From a virus, in IMG/VR virus record IMGVR_UViG_3300045988_058602, positions 90,765-154,764 of that record: a stretch of 64,000 bases of DNA. One strand, 5' to 3'. Position 1 is the stretch's first letter, and the number at the start of each line of letters is the position of its first letter. Position numbers and translations under genes: made by a program. This document shows positions 4,879-64,000 of this stretch, one piece after another. The notes below the pieces were generated by a model that saw only the letters and a list, made by a program, of their open reading frames with translations, did not search any database and was not told where the DNA came from.

Positions 4879-5347
4879 CTACGACATATTTTAAGATTTC
4901 ATAACTTTCTTCTAAGCCCGCCCTATCGTCTAGTAGAATATTGTAATAAGGCTTTCTAGAGTTCGGAAATAGTCTACTGCTTGTAAAAGGAGGTATAATC
5001 ATATCATTAATAAGATTTCCTATCCTCATTTGGACACACTCTACTTGTTTCTCTATAATTTTATTTTCGTTTTCCTCTGTAGAAAGTAAAATCATTTCAA
5101 AACCTAACATAGTACAACGTCTCAGTAGATTAATAACACAACTATAATCTCCTCCAGTATTATGATAGTCGAAGATAGTGTTATCAAAGTCGAAAGCGAC
5201 TATTAGCTTTCCGTATTTCTTATACTCTTCTAATAGTCGCTTCTTACAAGCCTCTTTTCCAAATGGATGGTTAAAACTTTCTATAAAGTCCTTCATTAAT
5301 TCGCTGTCTAATTTCTTTAAGAGTGTACTCCTTTTTAAGGACGCCAT
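4856..5347 (-). CDS. HAD-superfamily hydrolase-like protein (163 aa)
   Basis: Motif I FDFDNTI (DxDxT). Confidence 0.45.
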   Translation of the reverse strand: MASLKRSTLLKKLDSELMKDFIESFNHPFGKEACKKRLLEEYKKYGKLIVAFDFDNTIFDYHNTGGDYSCVINLLRRCTMLGFEMILLSTEENENKIIEKQVECVQMRIGNLINDMIIPPFTSSRLFPNSRKPYYNILLDDRAGLEESYEILKYVVDEIIKLN

Positions 5348-6833
5348 CTTCGAACACAGTCTCTAAACAGCCTCCACTTTCTACCTCAGGAGTTACTTGG
5401 TCTTCAGCATAGTAAACGCCATTAACGTCCTGATAGACAGCAATTAGACCTTTAAGAGAATTTTTAGTTCCATCATCTGTTTTAGGATGTTTGAATATTT
5501 CTTTCAATTCTCCATTAACTACACAAGCAGTAGCTTTGATTGCAAAGCCTAGACTATCTCTACTTGCATACTGATATGAGAATGAACCAACACCAAGAAC
5601 AAGATTACAAGCTGCCATGTGGGCATTCTCAAGTCTCATATAGATTTGCTTTTGACGTTCTAAAGTAATAGAATCTCCATACAATAAGCCTATCTTAGTG
5701 CTTGGATAACGGTAGTCCTTGGAAGTAGTATTCCAACCGAAGATCTTACCAAGCATATAGTATGCTCCGTAATATTGACCTTCTGATACTTCTACGTATT
5801 CTGCATCGTCATTAAACGGAGCATAACAGCAGTAGTATTTACCTTCCCTTATTCTTGTATTGAAATGAGGATTAGTTCTCAGACCACAAATAATATCTAC
5901 CGGGTCTCCACTATCGGGACGAATAACTACACGACCGTCACGAGCCATAATGTCTTTCTTCAACTTAGGAAGGAAGTTTTCAACAACATTCCAGAAATCC
6001 CAAGTATCAGACACTATGGAAACAAACCCAGTAGGATATAACTCATTAATGAGACGTTTATATGTTCCTAACTCGTCCTCTTCTCCTCCTGCACACATTA
6101 CCGAATGTTCAGTAGCCGGAACAGTAGCAGCAATCAATTCACTATCAGAATTAGCTCCATAATATTCTTCAAGAGCTGCAATAGCAGGAATAGTTTCACT
6201 TCCTACAAATGAAGTCATATGAGCCATACCAGAAATAACAGACGCTTCCAAACCAGCCATTCCTCTCATAGAGAAGTCATGACACAAGAAATCCAGGTTT
6301 ACATCCTCCGGAAATCCAGTATGTACTGAGTGTCTTTTGAGTTCTTTCTTATAGAGTCTTGCTCTAGTGGCAGAGGTACAAGGCATCCACAAAGTACAAC
6401 TAATCAAAGTCTCTAGATAATTAGTTAACCAAAAGAACTCTGGTTTCGTATTAGTAATAGTCATCATAGGAACTCTAATAGGACATACTGAACCTTCCGG
6501 CAACGCTTTAATACGAATAGGGAGATATCCTAAATCATACAAAGCCTCAATATGTCTATATCCCACGGACTCAATTCCAACGAAGTTGTGGACTCTCCGA
6601 TAAAACATTTCTATAGCTTTCTCTTTAGGCAATACAAAGAAATTCTTATTAAATTCGTCGATCAAATACTTTTTAATTAAATATTGGATTCCGAATACTA
6701 CAGAACCTTCGGTAGCTTCTGGAAAGTACTTGTTACTTCTCGGAGTCCAGTTACTATAAACTTGTTCAGTACCTTCTGGGTACATCCTGTGATGGCCTAA
6801 TTTGTAACCATCTGTTGCATTAATTATTTCCAT
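5271..6833 (-). CDS. nadV: nicotinamide phosphoribosyltransferase (NAMPT/NadV-like)
   Basis: 520 aa; N-terminus ATDGYKLGHHRMYPEGTEQVYS matches the conserved NAMPT N-terminus ATDSYK..H...YP. Confidence 0.8.
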   Translation of the reverse strand: MEIINATDGYKLGHHRMYPEGTEQVYSNWTPRSNKYFPEATEGSVVFGIQYLIKKYLIDEFNKNFFVLPKEKAIEMFYRRVHNFVGIESVGYRHIEALYDLGYLPIRIKALPEGSVCPIRVPMMTITNTKPEFFWLTNYLETLISCTLWMPCTSATRARLYKKELKRHSVHTGFPEDVNLDFLCHDFSMRGMAGLEASVISGMAHMTSFVGSETIPAIAALEEYYGANSDSELIAATVPATEHSVMCAGGEEDELGTYKRLINELYPTGFVSIVSDTWDFWNVVENFLPKLKKDIMARDGRVVIRPDSGDPVDIICGLRTNPHFNTRIREGKYYCCYAPFNDDAEYVEVSEGQYYGAYYMLGKIFGWNTTSKDYRYPSTKIGLLYGDSITLERQKQIYMRLENAHMAACNLVLGVGSFSYQYASRDSLGFAIKATACVVNGELKEIFKHPKTDDGTKNSLKGLIAVYQDVNGVYYAEDQVTPEVESGGCLETVFEDGVLKKEYTLKEIRQRINEGLYRKF

Positions 6834-6846
6834 TCTAAAAATTATT

Positions 6847-7353
6847 TTAATAACTAATTGTTAATAAACTCTTCATGTTTTTACCGACAGCTAAGTTCTT
6901 AAAACATTGAGTAATAAACTCTTTTGTCTCTGGATGAATCGCTCTAGGAGCGCTAATATATTTAATCCACCAGTTGTATTCTCCTTGGAAACTATTTCCA
7001 TTATATACCTTACCAGCGGCTAAATAATCACACACTAACTCTAATGCGTATTCTCTAGGGATTTTCACTGGGACTCCACCAGAATCTAATTGAGTTACCC
7101 AATATTCATAATGATGTGGATTCCTTCCTCTATGATGTAAATAGGACCTAGAATAGCCCAGAATTTCTTTCTCCTTATTTAATGGAGATGTGTTATCATC
7201 GTAAAATTTAACAGAGCGAGAAAATTCATACCATCCGAACTTAGATAAATCGTGCAAAATGCCCTGCCTGTATAGTCCTAATTGGAAGCAATAGTATGCA
7301 ACCCAGAACTTATGCCTTAGTATCCTTCTTAGATGCTTTAATATCCGAATCAT
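6847..7353 (-). CDS. HD-domain-like protein (168 aa)
   Basis: HDLSKF motif followed by a His-rich cluster HHRGRNPHH. Confidence 0.4.
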   Translation of the reverse strand: MIRILKHLRRILRHKFWVAYYCFQLGLYRQGILHDLSKFGWYEFSRSVKFYDDNTSPLNKEKEILGYSRSYLHHRGRNPHHYEYWVTQLDSGGVPVKIPREYALELVCDYLAAGKVYNGNSFQGEYNWWIKYISAPRAIHPETKEFITQCFKNLAVGKNMKSLLTISY

Positions 7354-34544: not shown

Positions 34545-35105
34545 TTAGTCTAACCATTCAAATTCTTCACCCTTGAAATGTCTTGCAAAACAAGCATCGA
34601 ACACTAGCTTTCCAAACTGGGTTGATACGTATTTGGCAATTTCTTCAGATTTGCACGCAAGCATCCCGACAAAGGAACCGGCATGGCCGACGCCACTGTC
34701 AGAATCGAAAGAGCCGAGACCCGCATCGCCGCCAATAAGCGCGCAGCCGCCTACCAACGCGAATTTCTCGCCCTGATAACGGAAGTGACCAATGACCTCT
34801 GCATCCTTCGGAACTGATTTCATTCTAAAGAAGCGAACCCAAGGATACCATACAGTTCCAGTCAGCAGATTGAACTTGTGCTTTTCGTTCAGCGCATCCA
34901 GAATTGTTTGCAACTTAGCTAGAGCCTTTACAGATTCAGTGTAATGGATTTCACTATTAAATAAGTACCCAAGATAGTCTCTAGCGTCCTCATAGGTCTT
35001 TATTCGTCCCATAATATTCTCTGGAACAATTTCAACATTACCTGTTTTGGCATTGTAGATAGGCTTGTAGCCATCTGGACATTCAATTTCAATAGTTCTT
35101 TTCAT
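34545..35105 (-). CDS. remote DGR target protein (186 aa) carrying a second variable repeat
   Basis: aa 116-148 GGCALIGGDAGLGSFDSDSGVGHAGSFVGML parallel the tail-fibre VR peptide GGGANYGGGAGLGSFDSSNGVGGAFSYVGF. Confidence 0.6.
   Translation of the reverse strand: MKRTIEIECPDGYKPIYNAKTGNVEIVPENIMGRIKTYEDARDYLGYLFNSEIHYTESVKALAKLQTILDALNEKHKFNLLTGTVWYPWVRFFRMKSVPKDAEVIGHFRYQGEKFALVGGCALIGGDAGLGSFDSDSGVGHAGSFVGMLACKSEEIAKYVSTQFGKLVFDACFARHFKGEEFEWLD
34659..34760 (-). repeat. DGR variable repeat 2 (VR2, remote, opposite strand)
   Basis: GC-rich island. Its reverse complement ggtaggcggctgcgcgcttattggcggcgatgcgggtctcggctctttcgattctgacagtggcgtcggccatgccggttcctttgtcggg aligns to the TR. Mismatches fall almost only where the TR has A. 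Confidence 0.75.
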
Positions 35106-35215: not shown

Positions 35216-35665
35216 TTATTTAAGTAATGGCGATAACTTTTTACCAAGAATCTTTACCGCCTTCTGCGCATCAGCCACAGTTTTGAAATAAACAACACCT
35301 GGATATTTTACATTCTGATGCATACCAACATATACTCCTTTTATATCGGTTTCTGTCTTCCCAGATAGAGAAGAACCTCTTCCAAGGAAATAGCCGTTGT
35401 TACTCTCCGTTTTATTCCAACCGTTGTTTAAGTAATTAGCTACTATTTGTAGACAAATTAGAGACTTAGTTTGCTCTGATGCCCCTAAAGGTAAAAATAG
35501 CACATCCCAATTCTTTTCAGATTCTAATATTTCTCCAAGAGAAGGGACTAGAACTTCTTCACTAAATGCAGTAAGAGCTAACTTTTTCAAGTCTTCATTA
35601 CCACTCTCATACCATTTACGTGCCTGTTCTAAAGTTACTTCAAGGCAAGCTTTTGTTTTATTCAT
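35216..35665 (-). CDS. hypothetical protein (149 aa)
   Basis: Intact ORF. Confidence 0.45.
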   Translation of the reverse strand: MNKTKACLEVTLEQARKWYESGNEDLKKLALTAFSEEVLVPSLGEILESEKNWDVLFLPLGASEQTKSLICLQIVANYLNNGWNKTESNNGYFLGRGSSLSGKTETDIKGVYVGMHQNVKYPGVVYFKTVADAQKAVKILGKKLSPLLK

Positions 35666-57882: not shown

Positions 57883-59469
57883 ATGATACAGCCTATTTAC
57901 ACTTCGGTAAGCAATGCTGACATAAAGCCTTGTGGAAAGAAAGGACATTTAATAAAAAGTGAGCCTATACCACTTCTGAGAGATAATTACTTAGGAGAAT
58001 ATAGAACAGAACTAGAAAGAGCTAAGGTTAGAAAAAACTTAGGAATTGCTGATGAGTAGAGTCTTCTTTGGGGAAACATTAGTGGAACTATAGAGGCCTA
58101 GAAAGACTTAGTTTAGTATATTGAACAAAAATGGACATATACTAGCGATGTTGCAGAGAATATTAACACTGTAAAAGATGCATTAGACTATGCATTGTTT
58201 TTTATTAGTTAGTATGAGGCTAATACTGAGGAAATAGAAGAGATAAAGGTTGATATAAGTAATATTAGGACTAGCATTTAGGTATTAGGAGAAGATCTAA
58301 AAAGAGAGATTGATACTAATAGGGAAGGACTAAATAACTTGTCTTAGGATATAGTTGAAATTAATTAGGCAATATCTAATATCAATGCTGCTATAGAAAA
58401 TATAGACGTTGATAAGAACATTCTTAATTGGATTAAAAACAATCTTTAGAACTCTAAGACTGTAGAGATAAAGGAAGATAATACTATAGAAGTTATTCTT
58501 TCTAAGCAGGATGATAATGCTATTCATTTAATTGAATAGGAATTACCTCCTGCAGAAGAAGGGGAACCTTCTACTATAACTCTTCCAGGAATCTATGTAA
58601 AGAATCTAGAACCTTAGTTAGAAGAAGCTTAGAAATCTATAGAAGAAGTATAGAAAGCTTAGGAAGAGACTAATGAAAAAGTTAGTACTAATAGTGAGAG
58701 TATTACAAATATTTAGACTAGTCTAGAAACTATAGCTACCTATTAGACAGAACTTCCGGATGATACAACTTCTACTGTTATAGAAGGTACTACTGTTGAA
58801 AAATTAAAAGGAAAACCATTTAATGAAATCATAGATACTTTACTATTCCCAACAGTAGTCAGAGATTTAATATATCCATAGTTGTATTATAGCTTTACTT
58901 CCCAAATTGTGGAAGTAGGAACCGCATTACTAAACCCAACCTTAACTTTCGTAAAAAATGATGCAGGAGAAGAAACTGACAGAGAAGAAGTTATTACTTA
59001 TAACGGTTCTCCTATAGAGTCTGCTACATATGATTCTATTGGAGTTTATACTCATTCTGGTACAGTAAACTATGCTGCTGGAGAATACCTAGTAAACAAT
59101 AAGGGAGAAATCACGGATAAGAGGGTAGAAGCTGGTTCTATATCAGCAACTGCACAAGTAACAGCTACTTATCCTTGGTATTCCGGAAATACTGATGGGC
59201 TAATAAAATAGTCTTTAGTTCCATTTAATTAGGCTTCTGGCACTATTACATTTTCGTTAAGCGGTAGGGCTATTATAAAACTACCAGGAAGTAATACTCA
59301 GCTAAATTCCTTCACAGTAGATGGAGGATTGGGATATTTGAATGTCGATCTGAATGGTTGGGAAGCTTCTACTGAACAAATAAATGGATTCCCATATAAA
59401 GTATGGACTAAGAAGGATACCTACTCTTCAGCACTACCTCACCAAATTAACTTTATTCTATCACAATAA
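57883..59469 (+). CDS. tail/structural protein with coiled coil (528 aa), TAG-recoded
   Basis: Frame includes the fragment 58882-59211 and about 20 in-frame TAGs; TAA overlaps the next ATG. Confidence 0.5.
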
Positions 59470-61337
59470 TGGCATTTAAATATACAGGTGATGCTACCCT
59501 AGGTGTTGGTTTAACCGTAGAAACTCCGAAGCCTCTGGATAATAGAACAGTAGTTGATAACCTAGAGGAGCTATATTCTATTCCAGAGAAATATGCTTAT
59601 TAGGGCATGACCGTATCTAATATAGATAACGGAAATATTTATATGCTTATTGATAAGTCTAAGATTAAATATAAAGAAGGATGGAAAGCGTCTTATGAAT
59701 CTATTCAGATAATAGCTTGTACAGAAGCTGAATATAAAGAATGGTCTGCTAATACTACAGAAGATTTTAAACCAATAGATGAGAATAAAACATATCTTCA
59801 CGCTGAAACATATTATTATATATATGAGGACAGCCTAGACGATAATTAGTTTTACCTATCAGCAGAATGGGGTAAGAAAATAGAAGAGTAGTTAAAGCAG
59901 AAAGCTCTTAATACTACAGTTGTATAGATTAGAAATGATTTAGACTAGACTATTTAGAATCTTTCTAAGTATGCAACATTAGAAGAATTAACTGCTAATT
60001 ATGCTCCTAAGGCGGACCTAGATTTGGAAGATCCAGAATCCCTTTTATCTAAAGCTCTGTCTAACCACTATACTAAACAGGAAACAGATGATATATTTGT
60101 TACTAAGGAAAGTCTTAGAGGGGAAGGAATAGAAGGAGATGATTTCGTCTTTGTTACTAAAAAGCAATATGACGAAGATTAGTAGGCTATCTAGAGCGAA
60201 TTAGATAAGACTTTAAAAGTAGATGGAGATGGTTCTCTGGAAAGTATTACTGTGGGACAGATAAAATCTCCAGTGATTGAAGGAGAGGATTAGCTAGTAG
60301 TAGATGTTAAATCAGACGGATTGTTTGTTGGAGAAGATCAATTTGCTATGATGTCTGATGTCCCAAATTTAGTTACATTAACTGAAGAGGAATATTTAAA
60401 ACTGGTAGAAGATGGTACTCTAGAACCTGACACATACTATTATGTGTATGACGTGACAAATGACGCTAAAGTCTATATTACTAAAGAGTATCTAGATTAG
60501 AATTACCATACTACTCATTAGTATTAGTCATGGGTAGCTACCAACTACTACTCAAAATCTCAGATTGATGAGATAGTTGCTGGTTTACAGAAACTTGGGA
60601 GCTACGTTACTACAGAAGATATTAAAGCATATTACACTAGTCAATAGGTAGATGAAAAGTTTCTTACAAAAGAGAATGCTCAATCTACATACGCTACCTA
60701 GTAGTCATTAACGGAGCTGTCTGGATAGATAGCAGAAGAGTATGTAACAAAGGATAGTTTGAGAGGAGATTCTCCCGAGACTGGTGATGATGACTTTATA
60801 TTTGTTACTTAGAATAAATATCAATAGGATTAGACTGCTGCTTCCCAAGAATTTAATACTAAGCTATTAAAATCAGAATAGATAGAAACTTCTGACATTA
60901 CTATTTAGAAAATTGTAGAAAAAGAAGTACAATAGGGAACAACTGAAGAAAGTCCAGGAGATATAGTAATAGAGCAAACTATTGAAAGCTCTATTAATCT
61001 TACTACTGAAGATAATAGGTTATTAGCATCAGGTAAACAAGTTGCTCTTATTGAAGAAGTTCCAAAATTAGTATGTTTACCCTAGACTGATTATGATAAC
61101 CTAGTTGAAAATAATAAGACAGAGAACGATACTTATTACTGTACTTACGGAGAAAAAGATATATAGGATACAGGATATGTTAGAAGCGAATATCTTACTG
61201 AAAAGTACTATACTAAAGCAGAGGTAGAAGCTTTGATACAGGAAGCTGTAAGCGAATTATAGAAAAAGATAGATGCAATATAGCCTGGTTCGGGCAGTGC
61301 ATCAGTAGATGAATCAAATGAACAATTAATATTTTAA
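59469..61337 (+). CDS. tail fibre/structural protein (622 aa), TAG-recoded
   Basis: Frame includes the fragment 59607-59849 and about 35 in-frame TAGs; TAA at 61335. Confidence 0.5.
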
Positions 61338-61342
61338 ACAAG

Positions 61343-61552
61343 ATGGGAACAATTTATATTGACGGACAGTTTAAAAGCTCTGCTAAGCCTGTAAAAGTTG
61401 TTAGTGGTAGTGTAGGAGGGTCTGGAGTAGATCCTGATACTCTCAAGAACTATGCTACTAAAGCAGAACTTCAGAAAGCTGTTGAGGACTTAACTGCTTC
61501 CATAGAAGGAATAGATCATGATGTAGTTGAAGAAACTTTAATAATATAGTAA
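61343..61552 (+). CDS. small late protein (69 aa)
   Basis: The ORF-track fragment ends at TAG; the real stop is the TAA immediately after it. Confidence 0.4.
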
Positions 61553-61553
61553 T

Positions 61554-63374
61554 ATGGCAGCTATCAAATCTATAAAGGTAGGAGAAATTACATACGACTT
61601 AAAGGCTACTTATGATGGTTCTGGCAACAATATTGCCGAGACCTATGCTAAATCTAGTGCTATTCCGACTAAAGTATCATAGTTAAGTAATGATAAAAAC
61701 TACCTAACAGAACATTAGGACATTAGTGGTTTAGCAACTAAAGAATAGATAGACGAAAAAGTAGACAAGGAATTAGGAAAAGGTCTTTCCGAAGCTAATT
61801 ATACTGAATTAGAAAAATAGAAGCTTTAGGGTGTAGAAGATGGTGCAAATAATTATGAACACCCAACTACAGCCGGATACAAACATATTCCCTCTGGAGG
61901 AGCAGCAGGATAGATTTTAACTTATTCTAATGATGGTACTGCTCAATGGGCAGATTCTAGCACTAAGTTAGATTAGCAATTCTAGGCACTTAATGAGGCT
62001 TGGGAAGAACTTCAGAAAGCTTAGCAAAATTTAGATAGTTAGGTAACAGCTATGACTAGTAACGCAGATCTTTACTCCTATGGAGTAGAATGGGATATAA
62101 CTGTATCTTCTCCGGTTCTCACCAGAATTGGAAACCCGTTACTGCATAAATCACTTCCTATTCAGTCTGCTTATAGGGGATGCGTAGCCAATGGAGCTAA
62201 TATAAACTATTTCTTACATCCAGATAATTGGGCTTATAAGGAAGACGGTACTACTCCCTCTGTGCTTGATGGTAGTGAAGGAACTGTTAGGGTTAACACT
62301 CCTAAGTTCTATGGTAAGTCTGGTTCCAATGGAAATAAAAGATGGGTAAGAGAATCAACTGTTAAGATAGACGACTCTTGGGTTGAAATACCGGAATTGT
62401 TAATTGATGCATATAGAAGCACAGTTGATACTACAGTATCTGCAACTCCAAAGGCTGTATCAGTAGTTAATACTACTACAGCATTTAGAGGAGGTGGAAA
62501 TAGAGCATAGTTCGACGAGTACTTGACTACTGAGCTGGAGACTAAAGATATTTTCAGAAGCGACTTAGGAAAACCAAGAACGAATATTTCCAGAGCCACA
62601 ATGAGAACTTATGCTACAAACGCAGGTTCTGAATTACTATGTTACGAATATTACAAGTGGATATTCTACTGGAATTATGTAATAGAATATGCTAACTTTA
62701 ACTCTTAGGCTACATATGAGGCAGAGCTTACTGCTGATGGCTATCATTAGGGAGGTCTTGGGCCCGGAGTTACGGATTGGAGTAATTCTGACACAAGTTG
62801 GTCTGGATATAACGGAACTTATCCTCTTACTCCATGCGGTCACTGTAACGATATTGGTAATTTCACAGGAGTTAAAGATTTAGTTATCCCAGGATGCACT
62901 GCAACAGATGGAACTAGTACAGTGGCTACTCATACTTTTAAAGTACCTCGTTGGAGAGGCTTTGATAATCCATTTGGAGACATTTGGACAAACCTAGATG
63001 GAGTAGTTATTCAAAGAACTGCAGCGAATGAAATAAGTAGTGTATATACTACCACAGATAAAGCGGAGTTTACTGACGTAATTGGCAACAAGACTATAGC
63101 CGGATACGAGGTAGCACAAGATGGATACATTAAAGAGTTTGATTTAGGAGAGACAGCGGAGATTATACCATCTTCTTGTACTGGAGCTTCAATTACTACT
63201 TATATGTGTGACTACCACTATTGTAACGCTAGCTCTACAGCGCTTCGCACGCTGCGGGTGGGCGGCGGCGCGAATTATGGCGGCGGGGCGGGTCTCGGCT
63301 CTTTCGATTCTAGCAATGGCGTCGGCGGTGCCTTTTCCTATGTCGGGTTCAGGACTCTAAATAGAGTATCTTAA
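61554..63374 (+). CDS. tail fibre protein with a C-terminal FGE/C-type-lectin-like variable domain (606 aa), TAG-recoded; primary DGR target
   Basis: One frame joins the fragments 62052, 62523 and 62922. The tail-fibre motif SGGAAG(Q)ILTYSNDGTAQW is present, with the Q encoded by TAG. The C-terminus ...RTLRVGGGANYGGGAGLGSFDSSNGVGGAFSYVGFR is encoded by VR1. Confidence 0.65.
63242..63349 (+). repeat. DGR variable repeat 1 (VR1)
   Basis: GC-rich island ctgcgggtgggcggcggcgcgaattatggcggcggggcgggtctcggctctttcgattctagcaatggcgtcggcggtgccttttcctatgtcgggtt aligns to the TR; nearly every mismatch is at a TR adenine. Confidence 0.8.
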
Positions 63375-63444
63375 GATATAAAAATATAAAAAATCAGTTT
63401 AGATAATAAACTGTAGGATATTACTTCTAAAAACCGTTGATTGG

Positions 63445-63552
63445 CAAAAAAGAACTGCTAGTAGGCAGCAACGCGAATAATGGCAGCAATGCAGGTCTCA
63501 GCTATTTCAATTCTAACAATGACGTCAGCAATGCCAATTCCAATGTCGAGTT
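63445..63552 (+). repeat. DGR template repeat (TR)
   Basis: ctgctagtaggcagcaacgcgaataatggcagcaatgcaggtctcagctatttcaattctaacaatgacgtcagcaatgccaattccaatgtcgagtt is rich in AAT, AAC and AGC codons in the VR reading frame, and no TR codon can mutate to a stop by A-to-N change. Confidence 0.8.
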
Positions 63553-63749
63553 ATTATATATTTAGAAACAATTTTAATTTTTACCTTATTTAGTTTGCTA
63601 AGTAATATCCTTGCCTCTAGGCAAAAAATAACGTAGTGTTGAATGAAGGGTGTTAGTAGGTTATCTCGAACGCTTCCGATGAAATATATAAAAAATTGAA
63701 ACGTGTAGGACATTTGCACGAAAGGGTGTATGATTTATGGAACATCGAA

Positions 63750-64000
63750 ATGGCTGATGATAGAGCCAGAAAAAATAAATCTGTTCGATGTGGAATTAAG
63801 CAACATGATAAAAATAGATTAAAAGAAAATAAGGAATTATCCCACAAACTAAGGGACCTAATTTATCAGACGTCTGAATATAGTACTTTCATAATATATG
63901 AACCTAAGGGAAGATTAATCTTTAGACTTCCATACTATCCTGATAGAATAACTCATCATGCGATAATGAATATTATGGAGCCTATATGGACTAAAATATT
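63750..64000 (+). CDS. DGR reverse transcriptase, 5' partial (continues beyond the window)
   Basis: MADDRARKNKSVRCGIKQHDKNRL...GRLIFRLPYYPDRITHHAIMNIMEPIW has the RT domain-1 pattern P..DR..HHA....EP, and it starts about 200 bp downstream of the TR. Confidence 0.65.
   Translation, partial: MADDRARKNKSVRCGIKQHDKNRLKENKELSHKLRDLIYQTSEYSTFIIYEPKGRLIFRLPYYPDRITHHAIMNIMEPIWTKI

Follow-up and report, generated by a model that had tools for sequence, protein, structure and literature searches.

In the Zeta group of crAss-like phages, diversity-generating retroelements (DGRs) have been reported in 18 of 43 genomes, comprising a tail fibre with a variable repeat (VR) in its C-terminal C-type-lectin domain, a template repeat (TR) and a reverse transcriptase (RT) with the motif GxxxSQ (PMC12386605, 2025). 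Amber codons are present in seven of the RT genes, and the accessory protein Avd was found in two phages only, Lera and ct1yV3. Within these, the ctoVY1/cthgQ11/3717_85572 group is characterized by 414-aa RTs, genomes of 182–189 kb, 24–27 tRNAs, CTA suppressors and a GC content of 34.5–34.8% (PMC12386605). A DGR has also been described in Quimbyvirus, where a second target is found far from the structural module, encoded on the opposite strand within a defence-related neighbourhood (Benler et al., 2021, PMC8008677). Here I describe a DGR at the 3' end of a 64,000-nucleotide stretch of viral DNA (positions 90,765 to 154,764 of the IMG/VR record IMGVR_UViG_3300045988_058602, one strand, hereafter referred to as the window). 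I read it, with a probability of about 93%, as the active DGR of a ∼186-kb, amber-recoded gut phage, whose targets are the tip of the tail fibre and a small protein encoded remotely.

The locus has the same tail fibre-VR-TR-RT order as the Zeta crAss-like DGRs, and shares with them the lack of Avd, the amber codons in the RT gene and the GxxxSQ motif. The resemblance is closest to the ctoVY1/cthgQ11 group: the window contains 27 tRNAs and a CTA suppressor and has 35.6% GC, its relatives are ∼178–192 kb long (typically about 186 kb), and the published 414-aa RT corresponds to the window open reading frame (ORF) read from GTG 63726 (424 aa from TTG). By this comparison, membership of the phage in that group fits. 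The cassette type is therefore known in this phage group, and the finding is mainly confirmatory; the additional details given below are useful, rather than categorical novelties. A preliminary description of this DNA, made from its letters alone, had already recognized a DGR here. All of its testable elements stood, but it saw only one of the two targets, missed the TAG recoding, the suppressor tRNA and the structured spacer RNA, and overstated the weight of a cassette type that was already published.

A repeat search of the window identified VR1 (63252–63349, + strand) and the TR (63455–63552, + strand) as a direct repeat of 98 nt with 76% identity, at an offset of 203. There are 24 mismatches between the two, 22 of them at adenines of the TR (17 A>G, 4 A>T and 1 A>C), a clear enrichment for a TR with 30 adenines in 98 nt (hypergeometric P = 2.9e-13). 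The other two are both T>G relative to the TR, at VR1 positions 63256 and 63287, and each is located beside a substituted adenine. None of the three bases that follow the 98-nt core on its 3' side matches (the TR has A once and T twice), and the VR1/TR homology therefore stops at 63349; on the 5' side, the TR may extend to about 63443. The preliminary description had reported ∼108-bp repeats, ∼95 bp apart, with ∼25 mismatches of which three were not at adenines. This is the same pair, and its adenine specificity holds, but the extent is slightly wider than the core: the extra 5' bases face a run of A in the TR and are uninformative, and those at the 3' end fall among the mismatched bases. The TR is a non-coding template with 10 AAY codons in the VR frame; as had been claimed for the downstream copy, adenine substitution cannot turn any of its codons into a stop. 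The GC content is 0.65 for VR1 and 0.45 for the TR, against 0.356 for the window.

VR1 is at the very 3' end of target gene 1 (61554–63374, + strand), the stop codon of which ends at 63374, and which encodes a tail-fibre/tail protein of 606 aa. The translation of the repeat, LRVGGGANYGGGAGLGSFDSSNGVGGAFSYVGFRTLNRVS followed by the stop, is correct as first quoted. The gene contains 13 in-frame TAG codons, and the ORF is open only when TAG is translated (as Gln); the placement of the VR at the extreme C-terminus of a tail-fibre ORF was thus right, but that ORF is readable solely under this recoding. In the structural model, which is that of a database homologue 95% identical to the window protein, the C-terminal domain that carries VR1 is predicted to adopt a C-type-lectin/FGE-type fold, in agreement with the earlier proposal of an FGE-sulfatase/C-type-lectin-fold target. 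A Pfam search of target 1 gave no match, as did a megablast of 61545–64000 against the INPHARED phages, and the exact-product look-up of the 150-aa fragment obtained with the standard code found none on record.

The TR serves a second repeat, VR2 (34663–34756, − strand), which is 28.7 kb away and inverted. Searching the window with the TR pattern, with N at each adenine, located it at 34663–34751 (−) with a single mismatch, where zero matches are expected by chance. Across the full 98-nt frame VR2 differs from the TR at 27 positions, including 23 TR adenines (P = 1.7e-12). The four non-adenine mismatches are all at the extreme ends of this frame, and as they occupy the outermost positions only, the homologous stretch falls a few bases short of that of VR1. 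VR2 is followed downstream by 39 further codons of target gene 2 (34545–35105, − strand), which encodes a 186-aa protein assigned to phrog_11581. This gene is read with the standard code and belongs to a minus-strand block of tRNA and metabolism genes, its immediate neighbours being small proteins without assigned role, plus tRNAs.

Target 2 has 832 relatives in the database, and the 120 listed are 86–94% identical to it; in an alignment of 31 of the relatives, nearly all of the variation falls within the VR. The wider family forms 207 clusters at 50% identity, mostly of 180–200 aa, with the motif LVGGxAxxGxxAGLGxFxS...VG followed by a conserved C-terminal segment. Searches with target 2, including profile searches of its family, revealed no Pfam, PDB-sequence or named PHROG relative, and in an hhalign comparison with target 1 only the 38–40 columns of the VR align, with no shared scaffold detectable. 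Homologues are encoded in two cultured Bacteroidales phages, among recombination, replication or methyltransferase genes. That of Phocaeicola phage PV4-TP1 is on the opposite strand, ∼15.7 kb from the tail-protein-TR-RT cassette of that phage. It is 34% identical to target 2, differs from PV4-TP1's own TR at adenines only, and is a remote DGR target too. Target 2 itself may be an intracellular binder related to phage-host conflict. Its identification as a tentaclin (PMC10743442) was considered and rejected, as it is without Ig domains and has only 186 aa. A separate observation concerns the adjoining ORF 35216–35665 (− strand, 149 aa), which resembles the target 2 family weakly and solely across the N-terminal halves of both (hhalign probability 83%, E 8.7e-06), and which could be a paralogue of target 2 that lacks the VR.

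To place both repeats among related genomes, IMG/VR was scanned with the TR pattern N-masked at adenines, and the 67 loci obtained were sorted by their flanks. Each genome has at most VR1, the TR and one remote VR2. In the 26 contigs where the TR flanks match the window, only 5 distinct TR sequences are found, while all 26 VR1 sequences are distinct from one another, as are 32 out of 33 for VR2, with VR2 flanks that are 87–99% identical. Adenine sites are substituted in 72–74% of cases in the VRs (72% in VR1), against 0.85% for the other VR1 sites, and the non-adenine differences of VR2 are restricted to its outermost 4 positions. Genomes that are ∼1% divergent over the 1,500 nt upstream still differ at 14–18 of the 98 VR1 positions, nearly all of them TR adenines. 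The preliminary description had suggested read pileups as a check for variation confined to TR-adenine sites; 26 VR1 and 32 VR2 sequences from related contigs were used in their place, and the variation is confined to those sites. This comparison is strong evidence that mutagenic homing is ongoing at both targets. In two of the relatives (L044 and L051), the TR-class copy has a VR-like G at several adenines, and L044 is also different in its upstream flank; recombination between TR and VR, or chimeric assembly, could explain these copies.

Downstream of the TR, the window contains the 5' part of the DGR RT gene (63696–64000, + strand, 101 codons), which runs off the end of the window. Its most likely start codon is TTG 63696, since every relative keeps this codon and it lines up with the ATG or TTG at which other crAss-like RT genes begin. 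The ORF had previously been started at ATG 63750, which this displaces, but its identification as an RT N-terminus is upheld by the match of the window fragment to Bordetella Brt (phmmer 4e-8). The rest of the gene can be read in related contigs: an exact 50-nt piece of the TR is found in 29 IMG/VR contigs of 96–270 kb, many of ∼186 kb, and four of these are 92–99.8% identical to the window over 537 nt downstream of the TR. In relatives (including the locus L022) the RT has 424 aa from the TTG, with LIGNYLSQ at 181–188 and YADD at 214, and it matches Pfam RVT_1 (2.9e-18), phrog_1423 (8.8e-110) and, at full length, Brt (1e-45). Full-length RTs from 16 relatives provide 14 distinct sequences, all of 424 aa and with YADD. 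The lack of a YxDD motif in the extended RT was named at the outset as evidence against a DGR; the near-identical contigs (99.8% over 537 nt) carry YADD. The RT of this phage group is closest to those of crAss-like phages, at 55–57% identity, and has the C-terminal extension of ∼100 aa that is common to crAss-like RTs. Outside the window, a conserved ORF of ∼117–130 aa overlaps the 3' end of the RT gene (7942–8325 in L022, 8537–8920 in L003 and 5054–5449 in L002). It belongs to phrog_11557 and is not Avd-like by sequence, and the cr7_1, cr55_1 and LMMB cassettes also have a comparable small ORF after the RT.

Translation of both target 1 and the RT needs a suppressor tRNA(CUA), and one is predicted by ARAGORN at 44696–44768 (+ strand). 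Among all 26 other tRNAs of the window, compared pairwise, the one nearest to it is the phage-encoded tRNA-Gln(UUG). On the plus strand between 44 and 64 kb, coverage by long ORFs rises from 0.14 under the standard code to 0.77 with TAG read through, which reveals a contiguous late-gene block including the terminase (TerL), portal and tail genes. TAG is the most frequent of the 244 Gln-type codons in these late genes (TAG 129, CAA 81, CAG 34). The RT gene of every relative has at least four in-frame TAG codons, the first one upstream of YADD, and for the Gln of the SQ motif, four relatives (among them the two nearest to the window) use TAG and the others CAA or CAG. Since TAG alternates with CAR at this invariant position, TAG must be read as Gln, and an active RT is impossible without suppression. 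The database gene call P0121 likewise reads those TAGs as Q. The phage uses genetic code 15 (TAG = Gln): TAG occurs at conserved Gln positions, a suppressor tRNA(CUA) is encoded, and the recoding is concentrated in the late genes. For the long minus-strand ORFs in 1–44000, the stops under the standard code are TAA in 34 cases, TGA in 16 and TAG in 4.

The spacer that separates the RT gene from the TR contains an RT-17-like structured RNA (63607–63693, + strand), with helices at 63611–63615/63620–63624 and 63648–63654/63671–63677. The match to Rfam RT-17 is full-length and ends 3 bases before the TTG, and scores 29.1 bits (E 0.001), under the gathering score of 40.4. A similar match ending at the RT start is found in all six other Crassvirales DGR cassettes, with RTs of about 50–57% identity, at 27–38.6 bits, also short of the threshold. 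The spacer RNA resembles RT-17 and has the position expected of it, and by the Rfam criterion it is not a member. In an alignment of the seven cassettes, 96% of the cells in the two helices are paired and five pairs show compensatory changes; on these 7 sequences the covariation is 0.606, against 0.253 for shuffled alignments (0/500 reach it) and at most 0.126 for slid controls. The spacer is almost invariant within the phage group, with a T-rich stretch after the TR that varies in length, and the fold of the whole TR-to-RT RNA is no better than that of shuffles (z +1.5). The RT-10 motif has been placed at the equivalent position of the BPP-1 DGR, with a suggested role in priming (Weinberg et al., 2017, PMC5737381). 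By analogy, the spacer RNA described here may bind the RT and prime cDNA synthesis.

Signals at the 3' side of the repeats are slight. A hairpin, ACTCT-AAAT-AGAGT (63354–63367, + strand), is predicted by DNA folding 5 nt downstream of VR1, with a 5-bp stem and a 4-nt loop; in relatives the stem is kept and the loop is variable. It might be the equivalent, so far unproven, of the hairpin used for target recognition in the Bordetella DGR. The repeats end with GTCGGG in 58/58 VRs and with GTCGAG in 25/26 TRs, which is the sole candidate for a distinction between the initiation of mutagenic homing (IMH) site and its TR equivalent, IMH*. The absence of an avd gene, as first described, is borne out as far as it can be tested: the VR1-TR interval contains no ORF, the ORF after the RT has no Pfam match, and BPP-1 Avd matches none of 508 ORFs from the window and two downstream loci, in what is an insensitive single-sequence search. 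Annotated avd is likewise found in 0/6 crAss-like cassettes. An Avd (or HRDC) accessory protein is common in DGRs, and is not universal.

Other explanations of these repeats can be weighed against that of an active DGR with two targets. It could be proposed that they record past homing by an element that is now dead in this phage, for example through truncation of its RT at TAG codons or through the loss of Avd. The RT, with its at least four in-frame TAG, would indeed be truncated before YADD under the standard code, no Avd was detected, and the RT core is outside the window. However, no Gln-type codon is more frequent than TAG in the late genes, the phage encodes tRNA(CUA), either TAG or CAR is used at the invariant motif Gln, and all 14 distinct full-length RTs from the 16 relatives have 424 aa and YADD. 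Moreover, VR1 differs in every genome and VR2 in nearly all, even where the flanks are ∼1% divergent, the TR and the spacer are nearly invariant, as selection predicts, and cassettes devoid of Avd are the rule in crAss-like phages (PMC12386605). I therefore consider a fossil element very improbable. A narrower version, in which VR1 is the sole true target and VR2 a degenerate or chance copy that has ceased to be rewritten, would account for the distance of 28.7 kb to the TR, the inversion, the lack of a hairpin downstream of VR2 and the non-adenine mismatches at both ends of its 98-nt frame. Yet the 33 VR2 copies comprise 32 distinct sequences, whose variation falls on the same TR-adenine sites between flanks that are 87–99% identical, the restriction of the other mismatches to the outermost 4 positions marks a slightly shorter homology, and in an unrelated phage the homologous gene is matched by that phage's own TR. 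Remote second targets have in addition been published (PMC8008677, PMC10743442), and there is very little chance that VR2 is not rewritten. Least credible of all is the ordinary duplication, or gene conversion, of Gly/Asn-rich coding repeats. A drift from G to A in a non-coding TR is conceivable in an AT-rich genome (35.6% GC), and 17 of the 22 adenine differences in the window are indeed A in the TR and G in the VR, as AT pressure on the non-coding copy would produce. Against this, the AAY sites show all four bases in the VRs, while the TR stays A in all genomes, the non-adenine positions are 99% conserved, two unlinked VRs in unrelated proteins track a single TR, and an RT of the DGR clade, with its SQ motif, is encoded directly downstream.

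Several observations nonetheless weigh against an active, two-target DGR. Its activity is read from differences between assembled genomes, not from the reads of a single population or from experiment, and the catalytic core of the RT is outside the window and was read from near-identical contigs, not from this molecule. The IMH-like element at the 3' end of the repeats is very short (GTCGGG against GTCGAG), the hairpin after VR1 is not significant relative to shuffles (z −1.8) and none follows VR2, and no Avd or other accessory protein was found, where the best-studied DGR requires one. The model of target 2, built from a shallow alignment, has a pLDDT of 48 and is unusable for a fold search. 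Finally, TR adenines that precede a G are G in ∼95% of all VRs, for both targets and including synonymous sites.

This last pattern indicates that the process is not simple random adenine mutagenesis. The TR has eight such NAG sites (63460, 63463, 63467, 63485, 63493, 63500, 63527 and 63549), which are almost never T or C in the VRs; at its AAY adenines, every base is seen. Selection for glycine is not the whole reason, since three of the eight sites are four-fold degenerate third positions. The same tendency is present in five independent crAss-like TR/VR pairs (loci L068–L073), in which adenines with a 3' neighbour G correspond in the VR to G in 34 cases, A in 4, and T or C in none. In the other contexts of these pairs, a 3' A or T is associated with all four bases at high frequency, and a 3' C mainly with G and A. 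For the Bordetella RT (bRT), it has been reported that the 3' neighbour shapes the error spectrum, with C misincorporation dominating in most contexts, NAG included (preprint 10.1101/2025.08.18.670894). This effect explains the observation only in part, as it accounts for the direction of the NAG>G change, but not for its near-completeness. A-to-I editing of the TR RNA was also considered for NAG>G and set aside, the 3'-neighbour effect being the simpler account of the direction.

An active DGR at this locus would operate as follows. Transcription would cover the TR, which is non-coding, and the structured spacer RNA next to it, and the RT encoded just downstream would copy the TR to cDNA, faithfully except opposite adenines. 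The cDNA would then replace the two homologous VRs, that of the tail fibre and that of a small protein of non-structural appearance, whose gene is on the other strand at a distance of 28.7 kb. In the tail fibre this would alter the receptor-binding surface, and in the second protein, most likely, the surface that binds an intracellular factor in phage-host conflict. As the RT and tail-fibre genes both have in-frame TAG codons, both proteins would be made only once the suppressor tRNA-Gln(CUA) works, and the amber-dependent RT would thereby gate hypermutation to late infection.

A broader reading can be put forward tentatively, and is in its entirety rather unlikely. It holds that the element diversifies, in parallel, the receptor-binding protein of the virion and a small intracellular protein from a widespread family (∼200 clusters at 50% identity, with most proteins of 180–200 aa, whose genes have non-structural neighbours in three or more unrelated lineages of Bacteroidales phages), which would be a hypervariable binder in phage-host conflict, acting for example in anti-defence or host takeover. 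It further holds that this Avd-less RT clade converts adenines before G almost deterministically to G, so that many of the TR adenines would be 'cryptic' and serve only to keep the TR distinct from the VRs.

Some other features of the window are worth recording. Gene orientation and GC skew both flip at about 44–47 kb, and VR1 (+, right of ∼44 kb) and VR2 (−, left of ∼44 kb) both point away from this switch. It has been reported that an orientation co-directional with replication favours DGR homing (2025 preprint). If the switch at ∼44 kb were a replication origin, which is pure conjecture as the skew also tracks transcription, both targets would be co-directional with replication. Just upstream of target gene 1, the ORF 59451–61337 encodes a 628-aa protein, in which three diverged copies of a unit are found at 60138–60833 (+ strand), with a spacing of 324–327 nt; this suggests tandem repeated domains of a fibre-like protein. 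On the minus strand, 25 tRNA genes are scattered over 13901–37927, including three tRNA-Met, two tRNA-Cys and two tRNA-Tyr. ARAGORN also predicts a tRNA with the anticodon UUA (41439–41509, − strand), which would read TAA. As TAA is the main terminator in both gene blocks (34/54 and 9/11 long ORFs), the prediction may be false or the tRNA non-functional; apparently unused suppressor tRNAs have been noted in Zeta phages (PMC12386605). Finally, the ORF 5271–6860 (− strand) encodes a 529-aa homologue of nicotinamide phosphoribosyltransferase (phrog_448, 5.8e-182), and is thus an auxiliary gene for NAD salvage.

Returning to the described systems, the locus is a clean example of a DGR in an uncultured and very abundant group of gut phages. 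For the ctoVY1 group, PMC12386605 gives one target per cassette, which differs from the two found here, and the remote VR2, the structured spacer RNA and the TAG at the motif Gln are unmentioned in that study. Most of the element would escape DGR finders that use the standard code and a search range of 10 kb.

The BPP-1 DGR (mtd-avd-TR-brt) is similar in its adenine-specific flow from TR to VR, its AAY-rich TR, its VR at the receptor-binding C-terminus of a protein with a C-type-lectin fold, its ∼140-nt TR-RT spacer with a structured RNA, and its homologous RT. In contrast, the element described here has no Avd, two targets instead of one, a far shorter IMH, a weak or absent post-VR hairpin, an RT with the C-terminal extension of ∼100 aa, a spacer RNA resembling RT-17 and not RT-10, and amber recoding of both the RT and a target. 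Rfam RT-17 (RF03020, PMC5737381) shares with the spacer its full length, the P1 hairpin, the UAGUAG...CGAA elements and the position directly upstream of an RT gene, and differs in that the score here is 29.1 bits, for a gathering score of 40.4. The RT motifs were published without assigned function, except for RT-10, which was linked to the BPP-1 DGR (PMC5737381). The presence of an RT-17-like RNA at the position of the Bordetella priming spacer suggests a likely role for this orphan Rfam motif.

In Quimbyvirus, as here, a single TR serves a target in the tail module and a distal one on the opposite strand, among non-structural genes, and the gene neighbourhood of the second target in PV4-TP1 also fits the description of Benler et al. 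The lineage is unrelated, with genomes of ∼72–75 kb, and its RT is split over three frames, whereas here it is a single ORF with TAG = Gln; methyltransferases are encoded near its second target, where small uncharacterized proteins and tRNAs are found beside target 2. Target 2 is homologous to the second target of Quimbyvirus, and one hypervariable protein family thus links two unrelated phage lineages.

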